A DNA stretch of 32,246 bases from a virus (taxonomy: Duplodnaviria; Caudoviricetes): positions 1 to 32,246 of IMG/VR virus record IMGVR_UViG_3300025764_000012, one strand, 5' to 3'. Below the pieces are notes generated by a model. The model worked only from the letters and a program-made list of their open reading frames with translations. It had not been told where the DNA came from and did no database searches. The translations under genes were made by a program, and so were the position numbers. This document shows positions 10,279 through 32,124 of the stretch, one piece after another. Numbering within the stretch: the stretch's first letter is position 1; the number at the start of each line of letters is the position of its first letter.

Positions 10279-10463
10279 GTCCGGTCCACCCGGACGCCCA
10301 ACTCAGCCTCCACGGCGGCCAGGAAGTCGGCGCGGGTGACGCTGATTACCAGGGACCTCTCTCGTCCGGGGATGATCTCGATAGCGACGTCCGGGCCGAA
10401 CCCACCGAACCCCTCGATCGTAACCTTGCGCCGCGTCACCACGCTCTCGATCTCGGTGCTCAT
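10275..10463 (-). CDS. Hypothetical protein
   Basis: ATGA coupling at both ends. Confidence 0.6.
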   Translation of the reverse strand: MSTEIESVVTRRKVTIEGFGGFGPDVAIEIIPGRERSLVISVTRADFLAAVEAELGVRVDRT

Positions 10464-11086
10464 ACTCGTACCCCTTCTCTCTCTGGAACCGTGGCGGGCA
10501 TCGTCTCGAACGAGGCGGGCCCGAGAGGACCCCGCGTAATGCGGGCTACAACTGCGTCCTGGATCTTGTCGGCCGCCGTCGAAGGATTGGTGCTGTCGGC
10601 TAGGCGTTCGATCTCTGCGAACAGCGCGACATCCTGGTCAATCTCGGCCGCTATCTGTGTCCGAACCAGGGCCCCGATGGTGGCATCACGGGCGAGGCGA
10701 GCGCGAAGTAGGTTGACTTGACGTTCCACCTGCTCCAGGTGGTCGGGGTTGACGCAGGGGCGGACACGACAAAGATGGTCAATGTCCAACCCCTCCACGA
10801 GCGGACCCTTCAAGAGCGCATACGAGACGCGATGCGCCAGTCGTAGACTGCCCTGCCATCCCATCCGGCCGTACCCACTGGCGTTCAGCAAGCCGGTCCA
10901 TATCCAGCACCCGGAGGGGTCGATCCGAACGTGAGACATGAGTCTGGCAACGTCATCGCCCCGGATCTGCTGGACCTTGAGGGGGTCGCCGTTCCGCTTC
11001 CAGCGCTCATAGTGCATTACACACCAGCCGCGCTTACGCCCGGGCTTGACACACCCGTCGATCGAGCAGGTCCGTTCGGTCAGCAT
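10460..11086 (-). CDS. HNH endonuclease with fused C-terminal domain
   Basis: CSIDGC..RGWC.MHY, CWIWTG, AHRVSY, IDHLCR.R.CVNPDHLE motifs; C-terminal extension homologous to ORF 17912-18091. Confidence 0.9.
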   Translation of the reverse strand: MLTERTCSIDGCVKPGRKRGWCVMHYERWKRNGDPLKVQQIRGDDVARLMSHVRIDPSGCWIWTGLLNASGYGRMGWQGSLRLAHRVSYALLKGPLVEGLDIDHLCRVRPCVNPDHLEQVERQVNLLRARLARDATIGALVRTQIAAEIDQDVALFAEIERLADSTNPSTAADKIQDAVVARITRGPLGPASFETMPATVPEREGVRV

Positions 11087-12111
11087 CTCACCCTCTCCTT
11101 CTCTAGTACTGCGGCGAGCGTCACGGTTGGAAACATGCGCTCGCCGCGTAGGATAGTGTCACGCTTCGCCCGGTCCCCGTCAAGTCCGATGTACCTCTCG
11201 GTCGTAGCCACGGACGAGTGGTGGAGCATGGACTGGACGATGCGTAGCGCTGAGTCTACACCATCCACGGAGAGCCTGTCAAACAGGGCCCGGGCCGCAC
11301 TACGGCGCAGCGTGTGTACCCCTTCGCGCTTGGTTGCCCCGTCCGCGTCATGGGTGGCATAACCGGACAGCGCCAGTGCCCCCTGAACGGCCTTGTGAGG
11401 GGTGCTGTAGGGCCTGGAGGGCACGTACTGGTCATACTGGACCATGACCCACTTCCCGCCCTCTCCGCGGGCCTCTAGCGTGGGCGGCAGCATGGCCGGT
11501 ACGAGGTAGTCGTAGTCGCGCAGCGAGATCCCCTTGGCGCCCTCGTAGGTATCGAGCCAGAGGTGGAGTTCGTCCGCGAGTTCGTGGCAGATGGGCATGG
11601 TGTCGGACTTGGCCGACTTGGGCACGAGAACCTGGATGGTGAACTCCGTGAGGTCCACATCGCCAACGCGCAACAGCGCGATCTCCCCCGCGCGCAGGAG
11701 CAGGTACAGGCCCAGGGCAACGACGATGCGGTCGCGGGGGTTCTGCGCCGAGTCGATGAGTCCGGGGAACTGGTCGGCCGGTACGCGCATCCGCTCGTGC
11801 TTGGCCTCGGAGTAGGCGCGCCGGTGGCGCATGGGCGACGAGCCGTAGGGGATGTGCCCCTGCTGCTCGCACCACTTGAAGAATCCGCGGAGTTCGGCCA
11901 CCGTCAGGTTCGTGGTCGTGGCGGCATGGTCTGAGCGGTAGGCCCCAAGGGCGTGGTCGAGGCTGGTTGACGTGATGGACGTGACATCCTCGCCAAGGAA
12001 GGGGGAGAGGACGGCGAAGGCCCGGCGCGTATTGCGCATGGTGGTCCCGGCGTACCCCTGACCCTCTCGTGACGTTAGGTATGCGGCCTGGACATCCCTT
12101 ATGGTGCTCAC
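11080..12111 (-). CDS. Tyrosine recombinase / integrase-family protein
   Basis: Catalytic R (LLRAGEI), K (PKSAK), HxxR (HTLRR), H and Y (LHHSSVATTERY); SAM-like N-terminus. Confidence 0.92.
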   Translation of the reverse strand: MSTIRDVQAAYLTSREGQGYAGTTMRNTRRAFAVLSPFLGEDVTSITSTSLDHALGAYRSDHAATTTNLTVAELRGFFKWCEQQGHIPYGSSPMRHRRAYSEAKHERMRVPADQFPGLIDSAQNPRDRIVVALGLYLLLRAGEIALLRVGDVDLTEFTIQVLVPKSAKSDTMPICHELADELHLWLDTYEGAKGISLRDYDYLVPAMLPPTLEARGEGGKWVMVQYDQYVPSRPYSTPHKAVQGALALSGYATHDADGATKREGVHTLRRSAARALFDRLSVDGVDSALRIVQSMLHHSSVATTERYIGLDGDRAKRDTILRGERMFPTVTLAAVLEKERVRC

Positions 12112-13498: not shown

Positions 13499-13533
13499 AG
13501 GTGGAGCGTAGCACCGTCCATCCGTTGCGTCAA
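13499..13533 (-). promoter_or_regulatory. Housekeeping-sigma-type promoter
   Basis: TTGACG-17 nt-TACGCT-6 nt-ATG on the minus strand. Confidence 0.7.
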
Positions 13534-13937
13534 GGGGTGTCTCTGCGGGCGGCGTAAGAGCGAAGTACGTTGACTCGATGCGTGACCTGCTCCAGGTGGG
13601 CGGGGTTGACGCACGAGCGGACTCGGCAGAGGTGATCGATCTCCAGGCCCTCCAGGAGTGGTCCCTTCAAGAGCGCATACGAGGCGCGATGTGCGCGCAT
13701 TAGGAGGCCGCGCACCCGCACCTGACCATACCCCTTGCCCCTAAACGAGCCGGTCCATATCCAGCACCCGGAGGGGTCGAATCGAACGTGGGACATGAGC
13801 CGCGTAACGTCGTCAGTGCCCCGCCTGGGCTGCCCGGGGCGCGGATCGCCGTGCCGCCACCAGCGTAGGTAGTGCATCCTGCACCAACCGCGACCTTCGA
13901 GCGGCGCGGTACATCCGTCAATCGAGCAAGTGACCAT
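13530..13937 (-). CDS. HNH endonuclease (paralog 2)
   Basis: Same motifs as 10460-11086; start chosen by alignment with the 14178 copy. Confidence 0.9.
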   Translation of the reverse strand: MVTCSIDGCTAPLEGRGWCRMHYLRWWRHGDPRPGQPRRGTDDVTRLMSHVRFDPSGCWIWTGSFRGKGYGQVRVRGLLMRAHRASYALLKGPLLEGLEIDHLCRVRSCVNPAHLEQVTHRVNVLRSYAARRDTP

Positions 13938-14177
13938 CCCTGGATGGTACTCCCCCCTGACCGTTGCGCGCGTCTGTAGGTACTCCGAGAGGTGAGTACA
14001 CCTAACAGTGTCCTTGTAACTGCTCTTACTATACACGGGGCACCCTTAGAGTGCCCCGTATGGTAGGTAGTTACTACGTGGTAAAGGCTACAAGCCTGAG
14101 TGTACACGACCCCGACCGTTACGTAGCGGGGCTACCTCACTAGGGTCGCAACGGCCAAGGGGTAGTACCATCCGGGG

Positions 14178-14618
14178 ATGGCTACTTGCTCGATCGACGG
14201 GTGCGTCAGGCCCGTCGATGCCCGAGGTTGGTGCAGGATGCACTGGAAGCGCTGGCGTCGCCACGGCGCTCCCGGCGCCGCGCGCCCCGTGCGGATTCAG
14301 GGCGATGACAAGGCCCGACTCATGTCTCACGTTCGGTTCGAGCCCTCCGGGTGCTGGATATGGACCGGCTCGTTGAACGGTAAGGGATACGGCCAGATGT
14401 ACTGGCGGGGACGGGTGTGGGCCGCGCACCGTGTCTCGTACGCGCTCCTGGGGGGACCGCTCATGGATGGACTGGAACTCGACCACCTCTGCCGCAACCG
14501 CCCCTGCGTCAACCCCGACCACCTGGAGCAAGTCACGCATCGAGTCAACGTAGTTCGCGGTTGGCGCGCCCGCGAACTATCGCCCTCCGGCCTGGGTGTG
14601 GTAGGGTTGCTCTCATGA
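14178..14618 (+). CDS. HNH endonuclease (paralog 3)
   Basis: CWIWTG, AHRVSY, LDHLCRNRPCVNPDHLE. Confidence 0.9.
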   Translation: MATCSIDGCVRPVDARGWCRMHWKRWRRHGAPGAARPVRIQGDDKARLMSHVRFEPSGCWIWTGSLNGKGYGQMYWRGRVWAAHRVSYALLGGPLMDGLELDHLCRNRPCVNPDHLEQVTHRVNVVRGWRARELSPSGLGVVGLLS

Positions 14619-17915: not shown

Positions 17916-18091
17916 CCGCCGTCGAGCGGCGGTCCGCAGCAGGGGTCCGGGCGCAGATCGCGGACGAGATCGACCAGGACACCGTGCTGTTCGCGGAGAT
18001 CGAGCGCCTCGCTGCCGGACCCAACCCCTCGACGGCGGCCGACAAGATCCAGGACGCGGTTGTAGCCCGTATCGCCCGAGCCGCCCCGTGA
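17912..18091 (+). CDS. Hypothetical protein (paralog of the HNH C-terminal extension)
   Basis: AGGAG RBS; QIADEIDQDTVLFAEIERLA...NPSTAADKIQDAVVARI. Confidence 0.7.
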   Translation: MTAVERRSAAGVRAQIADEIDQDTVLFAEIERLAAGPNPSTAADKIQDAVVARIARAAP

Positions 18092-18249
18092 GATACGTCG
18101 AGTTCATCGAGCCCGGCTGCGCACTGTGGCCCGCACCAATGTCGGGCGGGGGCCACCGCGCGGGGTACACGCTCTTGGGTTCCCTCGCCGATCTCTGGAC
18201 GATAACAAGCGCCCTCTACAACGAACTGAGATGGGAAGTGTTCGAGTGA
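18088..18249 (+). CDS. Microprotein (53 aa, MRYV...)
   Basis: GTGA overlaps at both ends. Confidence 0.5.
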   Translation: MRYVEFIEPGCALWPAPMSGGGHRAGYTLLGSLADLWTITSALYNELRWEVFE

Positions 18250-20145: not shown

Positions 20146-20907
20146 ATGAAGACCATCGCCATCCACCCGGACGCGCAGGTCCCGTATCACTTCAAGCCCG
20201 CTGCACGAGCCTTCAACAACTTCCTGCGGGCAGTCCGGCCCGACGTGCTGGCGTCCGTGGGGGATGAGGTTGACTTCCCCCAGATCAGCCGGTGGACCCG
20301 CGGTCTCCGCGGAGAGTACACGGGCGACCTCCAAAAGCATATCAACGAGGGCGTGGCGTACCTGCGAACCATGCGTGAGGCGTTCGGTGACGGTGAGTTC
20401 CACATCACTCGCTCGAACCACATGGACCGCCCACTCAAATATCTGCGGCAGCATGCCGCGGGCATGGCCGAGTTGGATGCCCTCCAGGTGGAACACATGC
20501 TACACTTCGAGGAGTTGGGCATCACCTATCACACCCAGCCGTACGAATTGGCCCCGGGTTGGATGCTGGTGCACGGCGATGAGGGCGGGCAGTCCCGTGA
20601 GGGCGGCCGGACAGCGCTGAACCTGGCGAAGAAGTTCGGGAAGAGCGTCGTCTGTGGGCACACGCACCGCGCCGGTCTCATCCCTGACGTGCGCAGCGTG
20701 AACGGGCGCCCGACCCAGGTCGTGTGGGGCATGGAGGTGGGCAACTTCATGGACCAGCGCAAGGCCGGGTATCTCGGCGGCGGGTCCGCCAACTGGCATA
20801 TGGCCTGCGGCCTGCTCTACGTGGACGGGTCGAAGGTGACCCCCCACTTGATCCCGCTCCGATCGGACGGGTCCTTCGTGGTCAGTGGCAAGGAGTACCG
20901 GGGATGA
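20146..20907 (+). CDS. Calcineurin-like metallophosphoesterase
   Basis: D.Q.PY, GDEVDF, SNH, HGD, GHTHR motifs. Confidence 0.88.
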   Translation: MKTIAIHPDAQVPYHFKPAARAFNNFLRAVRPDVLASVGDEVDFPQISRWTRGLRGEYTGDLQKHINEGVAYLRTMREAFGDGEFHITRSNHMDRPLKYLRQHAAGMAELDALQVEHMLHFEELGITYHTQPYELAPGWMLVHGDEGGQSREGGRTALNLAKKFGKSVVCGHTHRAGLIPDVRSVNGRPTQVVWGMEVGNFMDQRKAGYLGGGSANWHMACGLLYVDGSKVTPHLIPLRSDGSFVVSGKEYRG

Positions 20908-21599
20908 GTACGGGCCAGGAGAAGTACGTCAGCATGATCCTTGCTGCCGCTCGGCGTGCTGCCGGACAGGTGGCCCCGCGCTTCCCTGGCCTGCTCTCCT
21001 ACGCGGACGCGGTACAGGACTCAACCGAGTGGCTACTGCGGCACCCCGAGAGGGTGCACCACCACACGCTACCCGATGGTACGTTCGGCGGGATGCTCTC
21101 GGTGGAGTGCGCGGGTCAGGTTGCCCGCTCGACGTACCGCTCCAGCGCTCGCGGAAGGGTCGCCCCGGTCACGGAGGACACCTACAGGTACGGAAAGGCT
21201 GTCGTTGAGATGGCGCTGCCCGGCGTGTGGGAGCCCGAGCACCAGCCGCTGGGACGGTTGCCGATGGAGCACAACTCCACCCGCTCCGACCCGGCTGTGG
21301 GCGGGGACTGGCGCGCCATCATCGCAGACGTTCAGCGTGCGGTGTCCGCGGTGACCAGCGCCACCGAGAGGAAGGTGCTGCTCCTGCGCTCGGTCCTGGG
21401 ACAGGGCTGGGATGACATCGGATGGTCCCTGGGCGTCTCCGGGTCCACGGCCCGGCGCCGGTACTCCGGTGCGATCAGCGTCATCCTCGACTTCCTCAAC
21501 GGTACGACAGAGGAGGCCCGCCGCGAGGTCGAGCCGACTCGTCGCGTGATAACCAACGCTGCCGCTCGGGCGATGACAGAGCACGAATGGGACGGGTGA
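20904..21599 (+). CDS. Sigma-factor-like transcription regulator (region 4 HTH)
   Basis: D..Q...EWL; ADV.RA; ER.VL.LR...G....DI...LGVS..T.RRR...A...I.D.L.G. Confidence 0.72.
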   Translation: MSTGQEKYVSMILAAARRAAGQVAPRFPGLLSYADAVQDSTEWLLRHPERVHHHTLPDGTFGGMLSVECAGQVARSTYRSSARGRVAPVTEDTYRYGKAVVEMALPGVWEPEHQPLGRLPMEHNSTRSDPAVGGDWRAIIADVQRAVSAVTSATERKVLLLRSVLGQGWDDIGWSLGVSGSTARRRYSGAISVILDFLNGTTEEARREVEPTRRVITNAAARAMTEHEWDG

Positions 21600-21600
21600 C

Positions 21601-21768
21601 GTGAGGGGCGTCGGGTCCGTCCTGCTCGTCAGTGTCGTGTCCTTTTACCCAACCCCCTGGGACGAACTGCTTAACTTCTACCACTATGAGACCGACTTCC
21701 GGTTCCTTCTCAACCGCATAAACCGCCCGATCAGGGTAGGAATCTATGAGGAGGCAGCGGGGCGATGA
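21601..21768 (+). CDS. Microprotein array member 1 (55 aa, MRGV...)
   Basis: Hand-translated; begins 1 nt after the sigma-like stop; TGA overlaps the next ATG. Confidence 0.55.
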   Translation: MRGVGSVLLVSVVSFYPTPWDELLNFYHYETDFRFLLNRINRPIRVGIYEEAAGR

Positions 21769-21929
21769 AGAGCGTCAACGTGACTACCGCCAGTACAATG
21801 TATCCCTATCCAACACGCTCGGGGATGTGGGAAGCGTTCGCGGGCCCCGTCCCGCACCGCATGGCGGTCTTTGTTCAGCAGATACAGCATCCAGTTGTGG
21901 CGGAACTTTACCGGGCGGTAATGCGATGA
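21765..21929 (+). CDS. Microprotein array member 2 (54 aa, MKSV...)
   Basis: GGAGG RBS; ATGA overlaps at both ends. Confidence 0.65.
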   Translation: MKSVNVTTASTMYPYPTRSGMWEAFAGPVPHRMAVFVQQIQHPVVAELYRAVMR

Positions 21930-22078
21930 AGACCGTGAAGTGGGCCATGACAACCTCGTCCTCCTCCCCCGTGGGGTGGGAACAGAGAAACGGGATCTAC
22001 GCCGAGCCGGGGCAACTAGTTACCCACTTCTGGTTGCGCATTACCTCTCACCTCATGGGGGCCCTGCGCGATGAATAG
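21926..22078 (+). CDS. Microprotein array member 3 (50 aa, MKTV...)
   Basis: ATGA coupling. Confidence 0.6.
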   Translation: MKTVKWAMTTSSSSPVGWEQRNGIYAEPGQLVTHFWLRITSHLMGALRDE

Positions 22079-22226
22079 CGTGTATTCCGACGTCTGCCTC
22101 GGACAGAGGCTGTCCCTATATGGGGTGCCGATCCGCCTATGGCACCTTGATTGGGACGTTCGCCCCCTGGCCCTTGAGGGGATATCAGGTACCATCTATG
22201 TAGCAATCGTCTGGCCCGAGCAATGA
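22071..22226 (+). CDS. Microprotein array member 4 (51 aa, MNSV...)
   Basis: 8-nt overlap upstream; ATGA overlap downstream. Confidence 0.6.
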   Translation: MNSVYSDVCLGQRLSLYGVPIRLWHLDWDVRPLALEGISGTIYVAIVWPEQ

Positions 22227-22411
22227 AGAGCGTATTGCGCGACATTCGTACCCCGGGAATCTTGGTGATGAACGCCGTATCACCGCACCTATGGTACGTT
22301 GCGAATATCGGCGGCGGCACCGGTTCCCAAATCCAACTGTCCATCCAGGGCGCAATAGTATGGGCCGCCGTGGATCAGGCGGCCGCCCTACGGGAGGTAC
22401 CCTCCTCGTAA
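22223..22411 (+). CDS. Microprotein array member 5 (62 aa, MKSV...)
   Basis: ATGA coupling. Confidence 0.6.
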   Translation: MKSVLRDIRTPGILVMNAVSPHLWYVANIGGGTGSQIQLSIQGAIVWAAVDQAAALREVPSS

Positions 22412-22427
22412 CCTCCGTAGAGACACG

Positions 22428-22476
22428 GAACCCCCCACCTAGGTCCTAGCGGGCCAAGATGGGGGGTTCGTTCGTT
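22428..22476. terminator. Terminator-like hairpin between convergent units
   Basis: GAACCCCCCA...TGGGGGGTTC outer stem, inner GGTCC/GGGCC stem, followed by GTTCGTT. Confidence 0.6.
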
Positions 22477-22518
22477 AGGGGGGCTCCTGGGGGGCATCCA
22501 GGGGCATCGTAGGCCCCG

Positions 22519-22758
22519 TCAGGGGGCCACTCCGATGTATGGGTGGTCCTGACAGGTGTACTCGCCCGGCTCGCAGTAGTTCGGGCACTGCTGGCCCCGG
22601 TACGATCCGGGGACGGTGGCCTCGCAGCGGCTCGCCGGTGAAGTGTTCCGAATGGACCAGTATTCAGTCTCGGTCAGGATGATGCCCTCGGATGGTCCGC
22701 CATATGGGTGTATGGTGAGCCACCACTCCGGGCCGTCTACGTGCGTGTCAATGTCCAT
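22519..22758 (-). CDS. Hypothetical protein with C-terminal Cys/His finger
   Basis: AAGGAG RBS; C...G.QC.N......C..H. Confidence 0.65.
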   Translation of the reverse strand: MDIDTHVDGPEWWLTIHPYGGPSEGIILTETEYWSIRNTSPASRCEATVPGSYRGQQCPNYCEPGEYTCQDHPYIGVAP

Positions 22759-22904
22759 AGTTTCTCCTTGATTACGACGATACAGTTAAAGCATAGGAAC
22801 TCCGTCCCTGCGAGCGCGCTCCATATCCTCCCCTCCCCCAGGGGAAGGGTGTCCACCGGATAGAACGGAGCAACCGACCACACCTTGCCCTTTACACTCC
22901 TCAT
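22737..22904 (-). CDS. Microprotein (55 aa, MRSV...)
   Basis: GGAG RBS; ATGA coupling. Confidence 0.6.
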   Translation of the reverse strand: MRSVKGKVWSVAPFYPVDTLPLGEGRIWSALAGTEFLCFNCIVVIKEKLWTLTRT

Positions 22905-23068
22905 TCCGTACTCCAGTCCGACCAGAGCGGCTGGAAGATATCGGCAATAGGAATCCACAGGAGCATACCCAGGTCACGTTCGTCGGCCCAGCGGGACCGC
23001 AGTAGGCGGAGATATGCCGCGCCCTCGACGTATGTCAATTCGAGGTGGGCCGACGATATCCGCTCCAT
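22901..23068 (-). CDS. Microprotein (55 aa, MERI...)
   Basis: Starts 1 nt after the upstream stop; coupled downstream. Confidence 0.5.
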   Translation of the reverse strand: MERISSAHLELTYVEGAAYLRLLRSRWADERDLGMLLWIPIADIFQPLWSDWSTE

Positions 23069-23069
23069 C

Positions 23070-23369
23070 CTACTCGCCAACCTTCTCGATCTGTCCGACG
23101 GCGGACGCGACACGGATGATCGTGCGCGGGAAGTCCGCACCCAGTTGCCACTTCGCGGCGGCGCCCTGCGTGGCGCTCAGGCCGTAGGCCCATGACAGGG
23201 GGCCGTCCTTGACGACGGTGAGGAACCACTCGCGCTCCAGCAACGTCTCGTATGCCCTGGACAGGATGGCACGAGCGAGCGAGCGGCTGTCCTCATACTC
23301 GGAGGACTCCAGCAGTTCCTCGATGGCGGCGATCTCGTTGCCGCGTGGTGTGACGTGCGGGATGGTCAT
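23070..23369 (-). CDS. Hypothetical protein
   Basis: GAGGAGG RBS; GC3-rich codons. Confidence 0.75.
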   Translation of the reverse strand: MTIPHVTPRGNEIAAIEELLESSEYEDSRSLARAILSRAYETLLEREWFLTVVKDGPLSWAYGLSATQGAAAKWQLGADFPRTIIRVASAVGQIEKVGE

Positions 23370-23391
23370 GGGTCCTCCTCTGGTAGTTCTA

Positions 23392-23427
23392 GTGCCCGGG
23401 CGCCGATCTGTGAGCGCACGCCCGGGC
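23392..23427 (-). repeat. 36-nt intergenic hairpin repeat, copy A
   Basis: Identical to 27473-27508; 9-bp stem GCCCGGGCG/CGCCCGGGC. Confidence 0.9.
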
Positions 23428-23434
23428 TGTTGGG

Positions 23435-23851
23435 TCAGTCCTGGACCATCCTGATCTCGTCTGCCTGCTCGCGCTGACGGGAGATCGTGTATGTACCGGC
23501 CCCGATGCCCGCGTACCCGTGCTCCGGGTGCGCCTGGTAGACGGTGGCGCCGACGGGGACGGTCAGCGTGCCGAGGACCAGCGAGCCCTCGGTAATGGTG
23601 GCGGCATCGAAGAACCCGCCCGGGAGGAGCAGGTGCGTGTTGCCACCCACCTCGCCCTTGACGACGGCGACACCCACGGCCGGGATCGGCGTGGTTGCCG
23701 GGGCCTGGTCGGGAGCCGGGAGGATCAGGGTGTCGCCCTGGGCCTGGGGCCCGGTCAGGACCGGGATGGTCGCCTCGCGGCTCAGGTGGTCATCCACCTG
23801 GACACCGAAGCGGGTGATGGCCTCACCGATGGTGAGAGTGTTGCTCTGCAT
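23435..23851 (-). CDS. Conserved protein usually adjacent to DUF6745 genes
   Basis: QGD..I.P, GE..G.TH.L, H.EH..I..G.Y....QRE......V.D. Confidence 0.75.
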   Translation of the reverse strand: MQSNTLTIGEAITRFGVQVDDHLSREATIPVLTGPQAQGDTLILPAPDQAPATTPIPAVGVAVVKGEVGGNTHLLLPGGFFDAATITEGSLVLGTLTVPVGATVYQAHPEHGYAGIGAGTYTISRQREQADEIRMVQD

Positions 23852-23895: not shown

Positions 23896-24411
23896 TCACG
23901 CGCGACGCTGGAGCGTCGCGTAGACATCAGGACTCACACCATACCCCCATGCGGCCGCCTCACGCAAGGCGACTCGCGCGATGCGCTTGGCTGCGTTCCG
24001 AACGACGGAATACGAGACGCCGTACTCGGCGGACAGTTGGGCGATATTGCCATTCCCGTTCCCGATCTTCCCGGGACGGTAGCGCAGCGCGAGGTCCCGC
24101 GCAACGCTCAGCGGCACGACGGTGTTCACGCACCGGTCCATGAGGACCGTATCGAGAGCATTGTCCCCAGTCGTGCCGAGATAGAGGTGCCCGATATTCA
24201 AGCACTGGCCGTTACCGCACCGGTGTAGGACCTTCATGATTCCCGGGTCTCCCCGGGCGATCCACCACACGGCGCGACTGGCGTTCATGTCCCGGCCGTC
24301 CAGTTTGTAGGTGGGGCGCTTTGAGCGGCCAGCCTCGACGCACTCGACGGTCTCGGCCCGGGCCCCCGCATAGACGAGTGCCCGGAACGCTCCGTTGCCC
24401 CGCTTCATCAC
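23896..24411 (-). CDS. HNH endonuclease-like protein fused to a DUF6745-type C-terminus
   Basis: ASR.VW, VLHRCGN..C.N..HL.LGT..DN..D; HTH-like segment; ends AAAWGYGVSPDVYATLQRRA. Confidence 0.8.
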   Translation of the reverse strand: MMKRGNGAFRALVYAGARAETVECVEAGRSKRPTYKLDGRDMNASRAVWWIARGDPGIMKVLHRCGNGQCLNIGHLYLGTTGDNALDTVLMDRCVNTVVPLSVARDLALRYRPGKIGNGNGNIAQLSAEYGVSYSVVRNAAKRIARVALREAAAWGYGVSPDVYATLQRRA

Positions 24412-25505
24412 GCCCGCCGCTCGATTTCCAGGTACTGCTCGCGGGTCACTCCGTACGTCCAGGCGGCGGCGGCGATGGGGTCATCGATGTCGGCAGGAAC
24501 TGTTAGGCCGAACTTCCTACGCACCCCGCCCCGTTCCGTTGTCCCATTTGTCACGAGAATAACCCGCACCGGTTCATCGTAGATGGCCGCTGGCACGTCG
24601 TAAAGGGTGATAGTGCAGCCCGGATTGCCTGGATCATCCACCACCTCACCGACCTGTGCCAACTCGGCCTCGACCACGAACTGATCCCAGCCCAGCCGTT
24701 CGATGGCGCTGCGGCGAACCTCGGCGTTCGGCTCCTGGAGGATGCGGGTGGTGTCCCACTCGCCCCGGATCATCTCGGCGGGCACGCGCGTTCCGTGCCA
24801 CGAGTAGAGGGCGAAGCCATCCGCGTACTCGATGGCGGGGCCGTCTGCGTTATGGAGCCGCTGCTGCGGGTCCAGGTGGAGCGCCGTGGGGCGCTCGGTG
24901 AGGATGATGGCCCGATCGAACGGCCACCACCATCCACAACTTTTCGCCACGCGGATCAGGCCGGACAACTTCTCCGTGCCCTCGACGGGTACAACTACCC
25001 GGAAGTAGTCGTTGAAACTGAGCCACCCCGCATCGTGCTGCCCGTAGGCTGCCGAGCGGACCTGCTCACGAATGGCCGACTTGGCGCCGTTGCGGGCAGT
25101 CGTGGTCATCCCGGCCCAGACCTCCGAGAAGGTCGGGTAGTACTTGCCCTTGCCGATGACGGCCATGATGCGTTCCCAGACCTCCGGGTAGCGCTCGTCG
25201 TAGTCCTCTTCGACGTTCGAGATCAGCCCGACCGTATCATCGACGGCAACGGTGCCCGCAGCGGCCTCCTCGGCCAGTGACGAGGCCAACATCCATGCCC
25301 CGATCGCACCCATCATGGGGGAGTCGAGCCAGATGATGCTCTCGGGCTGGTCGAGCCGGGCGATGGTGTACGCCTCGCGGGCGCCAGCCTCCGCCTCTTC
25401 GCGGTCGGCTCGATCGGTACTCAGACCGATCTTGAGCCACATGTCACGGTGCGGTTCCAACGCCGCCTCCTGCCCTGGCGTCAGTTCTGTAATCTTCTCA
25501 GCCAT
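24408..25505 (-). CDS. DUF6745-domain protein
   Basis: GQHDA.WL, CGWWWPF...ILTERP..LH.D...RLH..DGPA..Y.DG..LY.WHG..VP, E.NAEVRR. Confidence 0.82.
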   Translation of the reverse strand: MAEKITELTPGQEAALEPHRDMWLKIGLSTDRADREEAEAGAREAYTIARLDQPESIIWLDSPMMGAIGAWMLASSLAEEAAAGTVAVDDTVGLISNVEEDYDERYPEVWERIMAVIGKGKYYPTFSEVWAGMTTTARNGAKSAIREQVRSAAYGQHDAGWLSFNDYFRVVVPVEGTEKLSGLIRVAKSCGWWWPFDRAIILTERPTALHLDPQQRLHNADGPAIEYADGFALYSWHGTRVPAEMIRGEWDTTRILQEPNAEVRRSAIERLGWDQFVVEAELAQVGEVVDDPGNPGCTITLYDVPAAIYDEPVRVILVTNGTTERGGVRRKFGLTVPADIDDPIAAAAWTYGVTREQYLEIERRA

Positions 25506-26030: not shown

Positions 26031-26180
26031 TTATCGCCGTATCTCGGCGCCATCAAGATACGGCGGCATGGACATGCCGCCACGGTTCGGGGCCAGCCAG
26101 AGCGCCAGGAGCAGCGCGAGGGCGATCAGGAGGATCGCGCACACGGCGCGGCCACGACGGGTGAGCCTAAGGACGGTCAC
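26031..26180 (-). CDS. Small membrane protein (49 aa)
   Basis: Hand-translated: MTVLRLTRRGRAVCAILLIALALLLALWLA; basic N-terminus plus a transmembrane helix. Confidence 0.65.
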   Translation of the reverse strand: MTVLRLTRRGRAVCAILLIALALLLALWLAPNRGGMSMPPYLDGAEIRR

Positions 26181-26350
26181 GGCTGCACCCGGCCCTCTAG
26201 TGTGTGCTCGATCCTACCGAACACCCGCGCCACCGGGATCAGGGTGCTGCCCTGGTAGCACAGCACCCATACATGATCCGCGACGCGCGTGTTTTCGAGA
26301 TAGGCGATTGCATGGGGACGCTTCCATGTCTCGTGCCGAACACTCCTCAT
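26177..26350 (-). CDS. Microprotein (57 aa, MRSV...)
   Basis: ATGA and GTGA overlaps. Confidence 0.55.
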   Translation of the reverse strand: MRSVRHETWKRPHAIAYLENTRVADHVWVLCYQGSTLIPVARVFGRIEHTLEGRVQP

Positions 26351-26994: not shown

Positions 26995-27045
26995 GGTGCT
27001 TCCCTTCTCCCGGGGCTCGTCGCCCCATCTCGGTGCTACTCTGTA

Positions 27046-27472: not shown

Positions 27473-27508
27473 GTGCCCGGGCGCCGATCTGTGAGCGCAC
27501 GCCCGGGC
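27473..27508 (-). repeat. 36-nt intergenic hairpin repeat, copy B
   Basis: Identical to 23392-23427. Confidence 0.9.
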
Positions 27509-27515
27509 CACCGTG

Positions 27516-27824
27516 CTAAGCAAAGTGCTGGCGGCATTCCCCCGGTTCGTAAGAGTAGTGGTGGGGAGAATCGCACTCGGGACAAGTGCGCTCGGTGGCG
27601 GGCTCCTCCTCGTCATAGGCGCCACCGTCCACGACGACGCCACCGTGGCGCAGGGCCTCACCCTGCGCGGTGTCGCGGTCGAGATACCAAAGTGGGGCCC
27701 CGCCCTTGCCCTTCGCCACCGCCCCATCTCGGCGCTGGATCATATAGTGCACGGGCCAGGTCCCGACGATGCCGGGGTGACGGGCGCCGGACGAGTCGAT
27801 ATAGGTGCAGCGTTGCGCGGTCAT
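27516..27824 (-). CDS. Hypothetical protein with C-terminal CxxC
   Basis: ATG follows the upstream TGA; CPECD.PH......C..H. Confidence 0.55.
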   Translation of the reverse strand: MTAQRCTYIDSSGARHPGIVGTWPVHYMIQRRDGAVAKGKGGAPLWYLDRDTAQGEALRHGGVVVDGGAYDEEEPATERTCPECDSPHHYSYEPGECRQHFA

Positions 27825-27825
27825 G

Positions 27826-28368
27826 TCATGCCCACCATGTATAAGCGTGCCGTGATCCGTCGAGGGTACACCCGCACCCGTCGCACCGATTCCGGGACAT
27901 TTCGCGTGTCTCGCACCCGGTCGAGTGACTATCGGAATCAGTCTCCCAGTGATCCGGGATGCCACAGTCTAGGCCGACCGTTGCATCGGTGTCGGGCTCA
28001 AGGGACCACGGGACGCACGCGGGGTTACACCCGCACGCCTCGCGGCCACGCTCGCCGGTGTCGCGTGCCAGGTAGCACGCGACACACACCCACAGGACAC
28101 CCTGAGCGGTCGGGCGTCGTCGCCCCATCTCGGTGCCCTCTTGAACGTCGGGCGCGGTGATCCATGCCACGATGCCGGGGTGCTTGGCACTCACGGCCGT
28201 GGTCGCGTATCCCATCGCCCGGAGTTGTCCGAGCAGGTCCCGAACCGTGGCAACGGGCACGCGGCCCGGTAGCACGGTCTTCAACTCGGCCGGAGTGTGC
28301 GGAGTGTCACAGAGACAGCGGTACACTTGGCGCTGGGCGCCCGTCAGGTTCAGTAGGTCTATCATCAT
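27826..28368 (-). CDS. Winged-HTH-like N-terminus fused to a Cys-rich domain
   Basis: LT..QR.VY..L.....T..EL........TVR..L..L...GY, then WVCVAC...CDGCG..L.G.RH. Confidence 0.6.
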   Translation of the reverse strand: MMIDLLNLTGAQRQVYRCLCDTPHTPAELKTVLPGRVPVATVRDLLGQLRAMGYATTAVSAKHPGIVAWITAPDVQEGTEMGRRRPTAQGVLWVCVACYLARDTGERGREACGCNPACVPWSLEPDTDATVGLDCGIPDHWETDSDSHSTGCETREMSRNRCDGCGCTLDGSRHAYTWWA

Positions 28369-28439: not shown

Positions 28440-29066
28440 TCAGACTCCAGCGTAGTACGTGGGCACCAGGTCGGTCGGGGGAAGCGTGACGCTAGTCCGA
28501 CTCCCCGGGTCACCCTGCCGGTGAACCTCCAGCAGCACGGTGGCGGCAGGCCCGACCGTCTCGCGGTTGTAGGTGACTGCCCAGCGCGAACCTGGGGACA
28601 GTTCGATCACGTCGCCCGGCCGCAGATAGCGGGCCAGGATATTTCGTTTGTCGTCGCCCCATCCCGGTGCCGTAGCGTGAGCGGCAGCCGCGTAGGCGTG
28701 GAGGTCGAACTCAGGTTCGGCGTGCCGCACGGGTGGCAGCGGGTCCGGGCCGACTAGTTCGCCCTCACCAATCACCAGCGCGATGGCTTCCTGGCGGTAC
28801 ACGCGGGCCAGGTCTCCGATCTCTGCGCGCAGCCACTCGGCGTCGCGTTCCTGGCCCCACGTTGTGCCGTACCGGGCGATCTTGGCAGAGTCCTCGACTA
28901 CGCCGCCCCACTCTCCTACGCCGTAGTGGGACTCAAGCCGCCCCGCGCCAGTTGTGGCATAGGCTAGGACGGTGCGCACGCGCCTCTGGAGCGCTTCCCA
29001 GTGGTTCGCGCTCATGGGAGCGCCCGCTATGTTGCGGCCGACCGTTACAGTGATTGTAAGTGTCAT
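28440..29066 (-). CDS. Hypothetical protein
   Basis: GGAAGGAATGAGG RBS; TV.VGRN....PM...W, G.GEW.G..E.S, Y.QEAIA. Confidence 0.7.
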   Translation of the reverse strand: MTLTITVTVGRNIAGAPMSANHWEALQRRVRTVLAYATTGAGRLESHYGVGEWGGVVEDSAKIARYGTTWGQERDAEWLRAEIGDLARVYRQEAIALVIGEGELVGPDPLPPVRHAEPEFDLHAYAAAAHATAPGWGDDKRNILARYLRPGDVIELSPGSRWAVTYNRETVGPAATVLLEVHRQGDPGSRTSVTLPPTDLVPTYYAGV

Positions 29067-31802: not shown

Positions 31803-31940
31803 ATGCTCACCATCATCCTGCTCCTCATCGCCGCTGTCTGCTTCGGTCTTGCCGTGCTGAACGTGGCGAGCAAGATCAACCTCATCGCGCTGGGGCGGTT
31901 CTCCTGGGTTCTGTCCGTCCTGGTCCCCCTGATCCACTGA
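31803..31940 (+). CDS. Small two-helix membrane protein (45 aa)
   Basis: Hand-translated: MLTIILLLIAAVCFGLAVLNVASKINLIALGRFSWVLSVLVPLIH; GGGGGA RBS. Confidence 0.6.
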   Translation: MLTIILLLIAAVCFGLAVLNVASKINLIALGRFSWVLSVLVPLIH

Positions 31941-31974
31941 CACCTTCCGGCCTGGGTGTGATAGGATGTGTCGT

Positions 31975-32124
31975 ATGAGACACGCGACACGCAACCCACC
32001 CGGGCGCTCGGAGCACATCTTCGTCCACCGGGTCCTCGAACTGGCCGGAGAGGCCCTGTACTTCGCGTGGTGCGCGGCCTTCACGATTGTCCTCATCGGC
32101 TGGGCCCTCACCGCGGCGGGGTAG
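31975..32124 (+). CDS. Small membrane protein (49 aa), possibly leaderless
   Basis: TAGGAT 7 nt upstream of the ATG; C-terminal hydrophobic helix. Confidence 0.45.
   Translation: MRHATRNPPGRSEHIFVHRVLELAGEALYFAWCAAFTIVLIGWALTAAG

Follow-up and report, generated by a model that had tools for sequence, protein, structure and literature searches.

Exchangeable microprotein cassettes in a peat-metagenome phage and their possible relation to a tract-less DUF6745 protein

A 32-kb virus record (IMG/VR record IMGVR_UViG_3300025764_000012, 32,246 nucleotides; "the window" is this whole stretch of DNA) carries five small open reading frames (ORFs) in tandem, here called microproteins A1 to A5. A first-pass annotation had described them as a cassette-like, diversifying library of paralogs. 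Here we analyze this array, its variation among related phages and its possible connection to a DUF6745 protein encoded in the same window. The array occupies the whole space between a sigma-factor-like gene and a stem-loop:

20904..21599, + strand: sigma-factor-like gene (phrog_354, E 1e-5), left anchor of the slot and not itself a cassette
21601..21768, + strand: microprotein A1, 55 amino acids (aa), GTG start, beginning MRGV; 35% identical to cassette a of relative L014
21765..21929, + strand: microprotein A2, 54 aa, MKSV...AVMR
21926..22078, + strand: microprotein A3, 50 aa, MKTV
22071..22226, + strand: microprotein A4, 51 aa, MNSV...WPEQ; in a four-member cluster at 90%, and 51% identical to cassette c of relative L023
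22223..22411, + strand: microprotein A5, 62 aa, MKSV; relatives P0020 and P0021
21762..22236, + strand: four junction repeats formed by cassette coding ends and coding starts, with copies at 21762, 21923, 22068 and 22220
22428..22469, no strand: stem-loop, right anchor of the slot, where the two arms of the genome converge

The array and its variation among relatives

The ORF coordinates confirmed the five coupled genes with their starts and overlaps. A1 starts 1 nucleotide (nt) past the stop of the sigma-like gene, and the genes overlap by ATGA at three junctions and by 8 nt at one. The repeated junctions were also found where the first-pass annotation had placed them, spaced 161, 145 and 152 nt apart and 76-100% alike over 17 nt. 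A degenerate junction pattern matched the window exactly four times, always at cassette starts, and seven times with up to two mismatches, where shuffled sequence gave 1.16 matches on average, a test that is partly circular, as the pattern was derived from the copies themselves. The lower guanine-cytosine content was borne out as well (58.9% in the array, 64.6% in the window). The five peptides share 17-33% aa identity in pairwise comparison and had no match in Pfam, PHROGs or NCBIfam; 50,697 phage records held no meaningful match to the array DNA or to A4, and the Atlas no usable match for a relative's peptide. The array occurs in 8 runs, all of them peat metagenomes, and none of those listed is RNA.

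A scan of metagenomes for two junctions yielded 30 matches, among which L001, L013, L014 and L023 are distinct relatives of the window. The others were rejected: 24 are unrelated repeats or chance matches, L007 is the window itself, and L020 and L021 repeat L001; all 33 matches of a second pattern were attributed to chance. The four relatives keep the sigma-like gene at 80-88% DNA identity and have the same anchors, with 2, 3, 3 and 3 microproteins in the slot, respectively. The stem-loop, which gave z values of -3.2 and -2.8 on its two strands, recurs as a hairpin with altered sequence at the same position in L001, L013 and L014. It is likely a terminator; the scan for terminators with a T-run did not pick it up.

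The content of the slot changes between these genomes. An HNH gene opens it in L001 and L023 and ends in the same junction, while an unrelated 78-aa gene closes it in L013. The closest comparison is that of L014 with L023: their identity is 97% to the left of the array, 99% across 212 nt within it and 99.5% to its right. Still, L023 contains one cassette more, a stretch of 167 nt between two copies of TGGCCC, and has an HNH gene at the place of a microprotein in L014; one further cassette differs in its front half and is identical over its last 23 codons. At the A2/A3 junction, a shared stretch of 23-29 nt (with at most one mismatch a side) links gene pairs that differ between the window, L001, L014 and L023, and the genes upstream of this A2 3' junction in L001, L014 and L023 are unrelated to A2. 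A comparison across relatives, which the first-pass annotation had proposed as a check, thus revealed gain or loss of a single cassette, a swap between HNH gene and microprotein, and half-gene mosaics. Close relatives carry cassettes of different number and content, a pattern to be expected from exchange at conserved coding ends. The notion of a cassette-like library is directly supported by the relatives, but exchange is not limited to the ATGAAGAGCGT junctions, as breakpoints also lie at W-P codons near the ORF end and within a cassette. The relatives' contigs may come from one sampling campaign, and the differences therefore represent variation within a population, not a geographic range. 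In two runs, contigs placed at 80% likeness accumulate over the flanks and become sparse across the array; neither summed contig depth nor missing cover was counted as evidence.

All 16 cassettes in the five arrays are open and coupled, without a stop or frameshift. The proportion of non-synonymous differences (pN) was below that of synonymous differences (pS) in 8 of 9 pairs above 50% identity, with ratios of 0.44-0.74, which are uncorrected and come from pairs that are not independent. The ORFs very probably constitute a real, translated cassette family.

A period-4 register, DUF6745 and a docking model

The C-terminal I-x3-[IVL]-x3-[IL] pattern noted in the first-pass annotation turned out to be real. 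V, I or L at positions i, i+4 and i+8 within the last 30 aa is found in 12 of the 14 non-redundant peptides (3.7 on average after shuffling; 0 of 2000 shuffles reached 12), and the same test at periods 3, 5 and 7 gave no such signal. Among peptides that were absent from the earlier observation, 8 of 12 have the period-4 tail (mean 3.1, 1 of 2000). The register is also present at the other end, with V, I or L at residue 4 in 21 and at residue 8 in 16 of 22 peptides, against a background of 24%. As the peptide sequences are related, the p-values of these tests are optimistic. The shared central Trp is present, but its position is not fixed.

This period-4 register is also that of the tetrapeptide tract within most DUF6745 proteins. 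Two genes of the window belong to this context:

24408..25505, - strand: DUF6745 core, 365 aa (PF20530, E 2e-45, 155 bits against a cut-off of 27)
23435..23851, - strand: conserved partner gene of DUF6745, 138 aa (phrog_27831)

The best BFVD match of the core is a DUF6745 protein as well (E 6e-15). The partner adjoins DUF6745 in prophiGD102-1, and a 53% identical copy is present in the unrelated phage L073, whose overlap with the window is limited to DUF6745, the partner and an endonuclease. Of the DUF6745 loci compared, 20 of 29 from viruses and 12 of 16 from genomes have a tract of V-[WRG]-[DAG]-[QS] type just before the YGQH motif. This tract is absent in the window, where the core carries a non-repetitive linker at the place at which relatives hold the tetrapeptide tract.

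Of 13 tract-less loci, 4 (the window, L071, L073 and L094; three of seven lineages) have two or more coupled small ORFs with both the start and the tail pattern at a distance of up to about 8 kb. The same pattern was found near 1 of 32 tract-bearing loci, L089, where the ORFs lie one per strand, are unlike the family and look like a chance occurrence; L118 was not parsed in this count. L073 contains 32 coupled small ORFs, of which 19 have a period-4 tail (shuffle mean 6.0) and 22 have V, I or L at residue 4. At L094:7636-9466, the partner and a tract-less DUF6745 are followed by clean S-V repeat peptides and a single decayed MKTV peptide, all in one chain, which appears as a bridge between the clean and the decayed peptide forms. 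Judged by their sequences, the window peptides would be a diverged variant of a detached DUF6745 tract rather than a plain member. The statement that they belong to no named family holds for the peptides in Pfam, PHROGs and NCBIfam, but a connection to DUF6745 emerged from register, co-occurrence and a docking model.

In this ESMFold2 model, A4 was placed on the DUF6745 core with a score of 0.73 (0.73, 0.72, 0.75), compared to 0.01 for the best of three controls. Of 157 solved pairs 116 attain the docking mark, as do 2 of 215 mismatched ones, a calibration that is rough here because our own alignments were used. At least 95% of contacts are common to the runs, and the docked peptide has a predicted local distance difference test (pLDDT) value of at least 71. 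The surest predicted contacts are those of the common start motif (A4 residues 2-8) with residues 194-197, 45-51, 70-74 and 151-153 of the core. The predicted interface covers H157-W161, W192-A199 and L217 of the core, including invariant columns; it flanks both ends of the linker (residues 83-144), which itself contributes no predicted interface residue. These core positions are 99-100% identical in the four close relatives, compared to 85-89% elsewhere, and are more conserved than the rest of the core in 26 of 26 rows. The core alone was modeled with a pLDDT of 87 and had no match in the PDB by Foldseek or profile; with no similar structure solved, it is unlikely that the docking model simply reproduces a known complex. 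Structure prediction was another of the checks proposed earlier: A4 docks on the core in the model, and A4 alone was predicted by AlphaFold2 with low confidence (pLDDT 54) and a C-terminal helix at residues 31-47. The model supports binding of A4 to the core, and binding by the peptides is considered probable.

Proposed role and alternatives

We favor the reading that the five ORFs are exchangeable cassettes representing strongly diverged, free-standing versions of the DUF6745 tract, predicted to dock on the tract-less core, and assign it a probability of roughly 0.62. Most likely, a single conserved core would use several interchangeable peptides instead of a tract of its own. The shared M-x-S-V-x-x-x-V start is predicted to pack on the four core segments named above, with the remainder of the peptide covering the conserved YGQHDAGW region. 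Homologous or homeologous recombination over 20-30 nt of common end sequence may bring about the exchange. The conserved ends would serve both as crossover site and as docking site, leaving the middle free to vary, and each peptide would give the core a different outer surface. By analogy, this surface could tune the action of the complex against host defense or competing phages, a suggestion to which we give somewhat less than even odds. Slightly more tentative still is the wider notion of a combinatorial binder system, in which one conserved DUF6745 scaffold would accept any peptide of a pool that the phage population shuffles against host defenses, with no need for a retroelement or a dedicated recombinase. 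The scanned ORFs of the window include an exonuclease and the RusA-like resolvase, but none was identified as a recombinase.

Several observations weigh against the favored reading. The docking model rests on one of the five peptides, and the conservation of the interface has other explanations, as it includes the invariant motif of the family. A short, decayed register still precedes YGQH in the window core, and four of the seven tract-less lineages have no library within the flanks examined. The array is located 2 kb from the core, on the opposite strand and behind another operon, so that co-expression is not a given. At the sequence level, the V-[WRG]-[DAG]-[QS] repeat is not recognizable in the peptides and leaves a weak pooled signal only: the tract profile reached a Stouffer z of 2.97 over 14 peptides, p ≤ 0.05 was attained individually by at best 4 of 19 and in fact by three (A3, A5 and L023c), and Q at the fourth position is rare. 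Profile-profile comparison (hhalign) of the peptides with DUF6745 gave nothing. A profile search with the members, as proposed in the first-pass annotation, reached its own clade but no wider family: among 1.84 billion representatives it returned 12 proteins, of which 10 are clade peptides and two, P0034 and P0039, were set aside as unrelated repeat proteins, and none of the 12 is a clean tetrad peptide. The profile was marginal on the L073 peptides (best E 4e-4 among 32). Mycobacteriophage Tweety gp54 was rejected as a DUF6745 homologue (hhalign probability 0.1), as neither homologous N- and C-terminal domains nor the A-A-x-x repeat were found. Finally, pN/pS ratios of 0.44-0.74 indicate weak selection, and the closest pair differs by four non-synonymous changes to one synonymous change.

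The peptides might instead be stand-alone host-interaction peptides, in line with the role suggested in the first-pass annotation, each with its own target in the host or a rival phage, the period-4 helix and the link to DUF6745 being incidental. The separate operons of array and DUF6745, the missing sequence-level match and the uptake of unrelated genes into the array (HNH in L001 and L023, the 78-aa gene in L013) are in line with this view. However, it leaves unaccounted for the docking score of A4 against its controls with the conserved start at the interface (under a rough calibration), the recurrence of libraries beside tract-less DUF6745 in unrelated phages, and the strict period of 4, not 3 or 7; we consider it unlikely.

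More improbable is that DUF6745 is an effector whose YGQHDAGW site is capped by the peptides as inhibitors or immunity factors, making the array a set of antidotes against variants that other phages carry. Gain and loss of single cassettes and the invariant columns within the predicted interface would fit. Nevertheless, the predicted core surface is almost fully conserved while the relatives' peptides differ completely, which counts against a lock-and-key arms race because such a race would diversify both sides; moreover, searches with Foldseek, profiles and BFVD found no enzyme fold for the core. Least probable, by a small margin, are relics without a function of their own, i.e. once-detached repeat genes that drift, are held open by coupling and are moved by recombination and HNH homing: the high aa divergence, pN/pS ratios that reach 0.74 and, for the closest pair, exceed 1, the lower guanine-cytosine content and the HNH genes in the same slots agree with this, but 16 intact cassettes out of 16, pN below pS in eight of the nine comparable pairs, a register kept at both peptide ends and a diverged peptide that still docks in the model do not.

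If the favored reading is true, it would offer a common role for many orphan phage genes of 50-60 aa that no profile recognizes, and a starting point for work on DUF6745, a family as yet unstudied. It would also describe a simple route of diversification, in which gene ends double as docking and crossover sites and the exchange steps are visible in near-identical genomes.

Phage context and comparison with known systems

Further candidate members lie outside the interval described in the first-pass annotation:

22737..22904, - strand: microprotein B2, 55 aa, MRSV, second slot; other versions in L001, L013 and L014; period-4 tail at two of three positions only
22901..23068, - strand: microprotein B1, 55 aa, second slot; period-4 tail at three of three positions, without the start motif
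26177..26350, - strand: candidate C1, 57 aa, MRSV; start motif and period-4 tail in the window sequence alone
18088..18249, + strand: candidate D1, 53 aa, MRYV, ahead of the RusA-like gene; pattern only, with an HNH gene at this slot in L001

B1 and B2 are coupled ORFs (22737-23068), and their slot differs in L001, L013 and L014; contigs of three runs bridge it at 80% likeness, with unknown letters between. A 79-aa gene (22519-22758, - strand) has conserved ends and a variable middle, and 83-115 nt at 22601-22730 are skipped in contigs of several runs.

Pfam and PHROGs scans of the window detected a capsid protein, tail proteins, a generic tyrosine integrase (11080-12111), a DnaB-like helicase, the RusA-like resolvase, a split primase, a metallophosphoesterase and the sigma-like protein. 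The order of the replication genes is that of Streptomyces phage GirlDinner, and a 635-aa window protein matches 31 phage records at about 30% identity, 29 of them from Streptomyces phages, which makes an actinobacterial host likely. The window likely derives from a temperate phage of such a host.

The window also contains four HNH genes and one endonuclease VII gene (10460-11086, 13530-14036, 14178-14618, 23896-24411 and 2449-2859). Long DNA repeats are common to three of the HNH genes, and the microprotein slots of relatives hold HNH genes, too. Between genes of the left-going arm, a perfect, hairpin-forming direct repeat of 36 nt (23392-23427 and 27473-27508) is kept in L013 and may be a regulatory or processing site. 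The same arm has a 26-nt motif in three copies (27011-27036, 28111-28136 and 28645-28670), which 27719-27742 resembles. Two look-alike stretches of 43 nt (14576-14618 and 31936-31978) both end in ATGA and are possible promoters.

Outside the window, L073:1-10376 (G001) is a GC-rich phage with a tract-less DUF6745, the partner and about 32 coupled ORFs of 40-80 aa, many of them starting M-x-x-V, a much larger library of this kind; the sole profile match in G001 spans a stop and was rejected. Within it, a microprotein-like stretch lies in frame upstream of the DUF6745 start (L073:1174-2382), a possible peptide-core fusion. Seven copies of DUF6745, with S-V tracts that vary in length, are found in a single assembled bacterial genome (L110-L114, L116 and L118).

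Variable islands are known in phage populations. Other classes of repeat array were rejected for this locus. Among the 25 longest of 49 inverted repeats, none recurs at the junctions in the manner of attC, and there is no Rfam match, which speaks against an integron and, for the latter point, against a non-coding RNA. The units between repeats are open, coupled genes of 130-150 nt, which rules out a CRISPR array. For a diversity-generating retroelement, no reverse transcriptase was found among the scanned ORFs of this contig, which is a fragment, nor a long repeat of the array, and changes over 20900-23400 are not biased to A. Open-licence literature in PMC and bioRxiv, in which subscription journals are largely missing, yielded no mention of DUF6745, PF20530 or phrog_31813 and, by keyword, no papers on such arrays.

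Repeat-driven shuffling of small phage genes is already known: according to PMC2839356, recombination between the short repeats of PeSL elements shuffles small genes in hyperplastic regions of T4-type phages. As described there, PeSLs are intergenic units of promoter and stem-loop around unrelated genes, whereas the window repeats are the coding ends of paralogues. Assignment to PeSL was rejected, as the window genes overlap, with no intergenic DNA, hairpin or sigma-70 site between them (the scan covers sigma-70 only). A functional analogy is offered by mycobacteriophage Tweety gp54, which carries an internal A-A-x-x tetrapeptide repeat (PMC2884959) and whose escape mutants with a changed repeat number overcome the Phrann gp29/gp30 defense (PMC9262239). 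Variation of the gp54 repeat tunes this escape, and variation of the window peptides may act in a similar way; the gp54 repeat is internal, of A-A-x-x type and variable in number, while the window register is on separate genes. Closest to the window are the DUF6745 proteins with an internal tract (PF20530, phrog_31813), such as gp38 of prophiGD102-1 with its partner gp37. Core and partner are likewise present in the window, and the period-4 aliphatic register of the tract is common to the window peptides; in contrast to these proteins, the window core has no tract, and the register resides on separate genes of 50-60 aa with non-repetitive middles.
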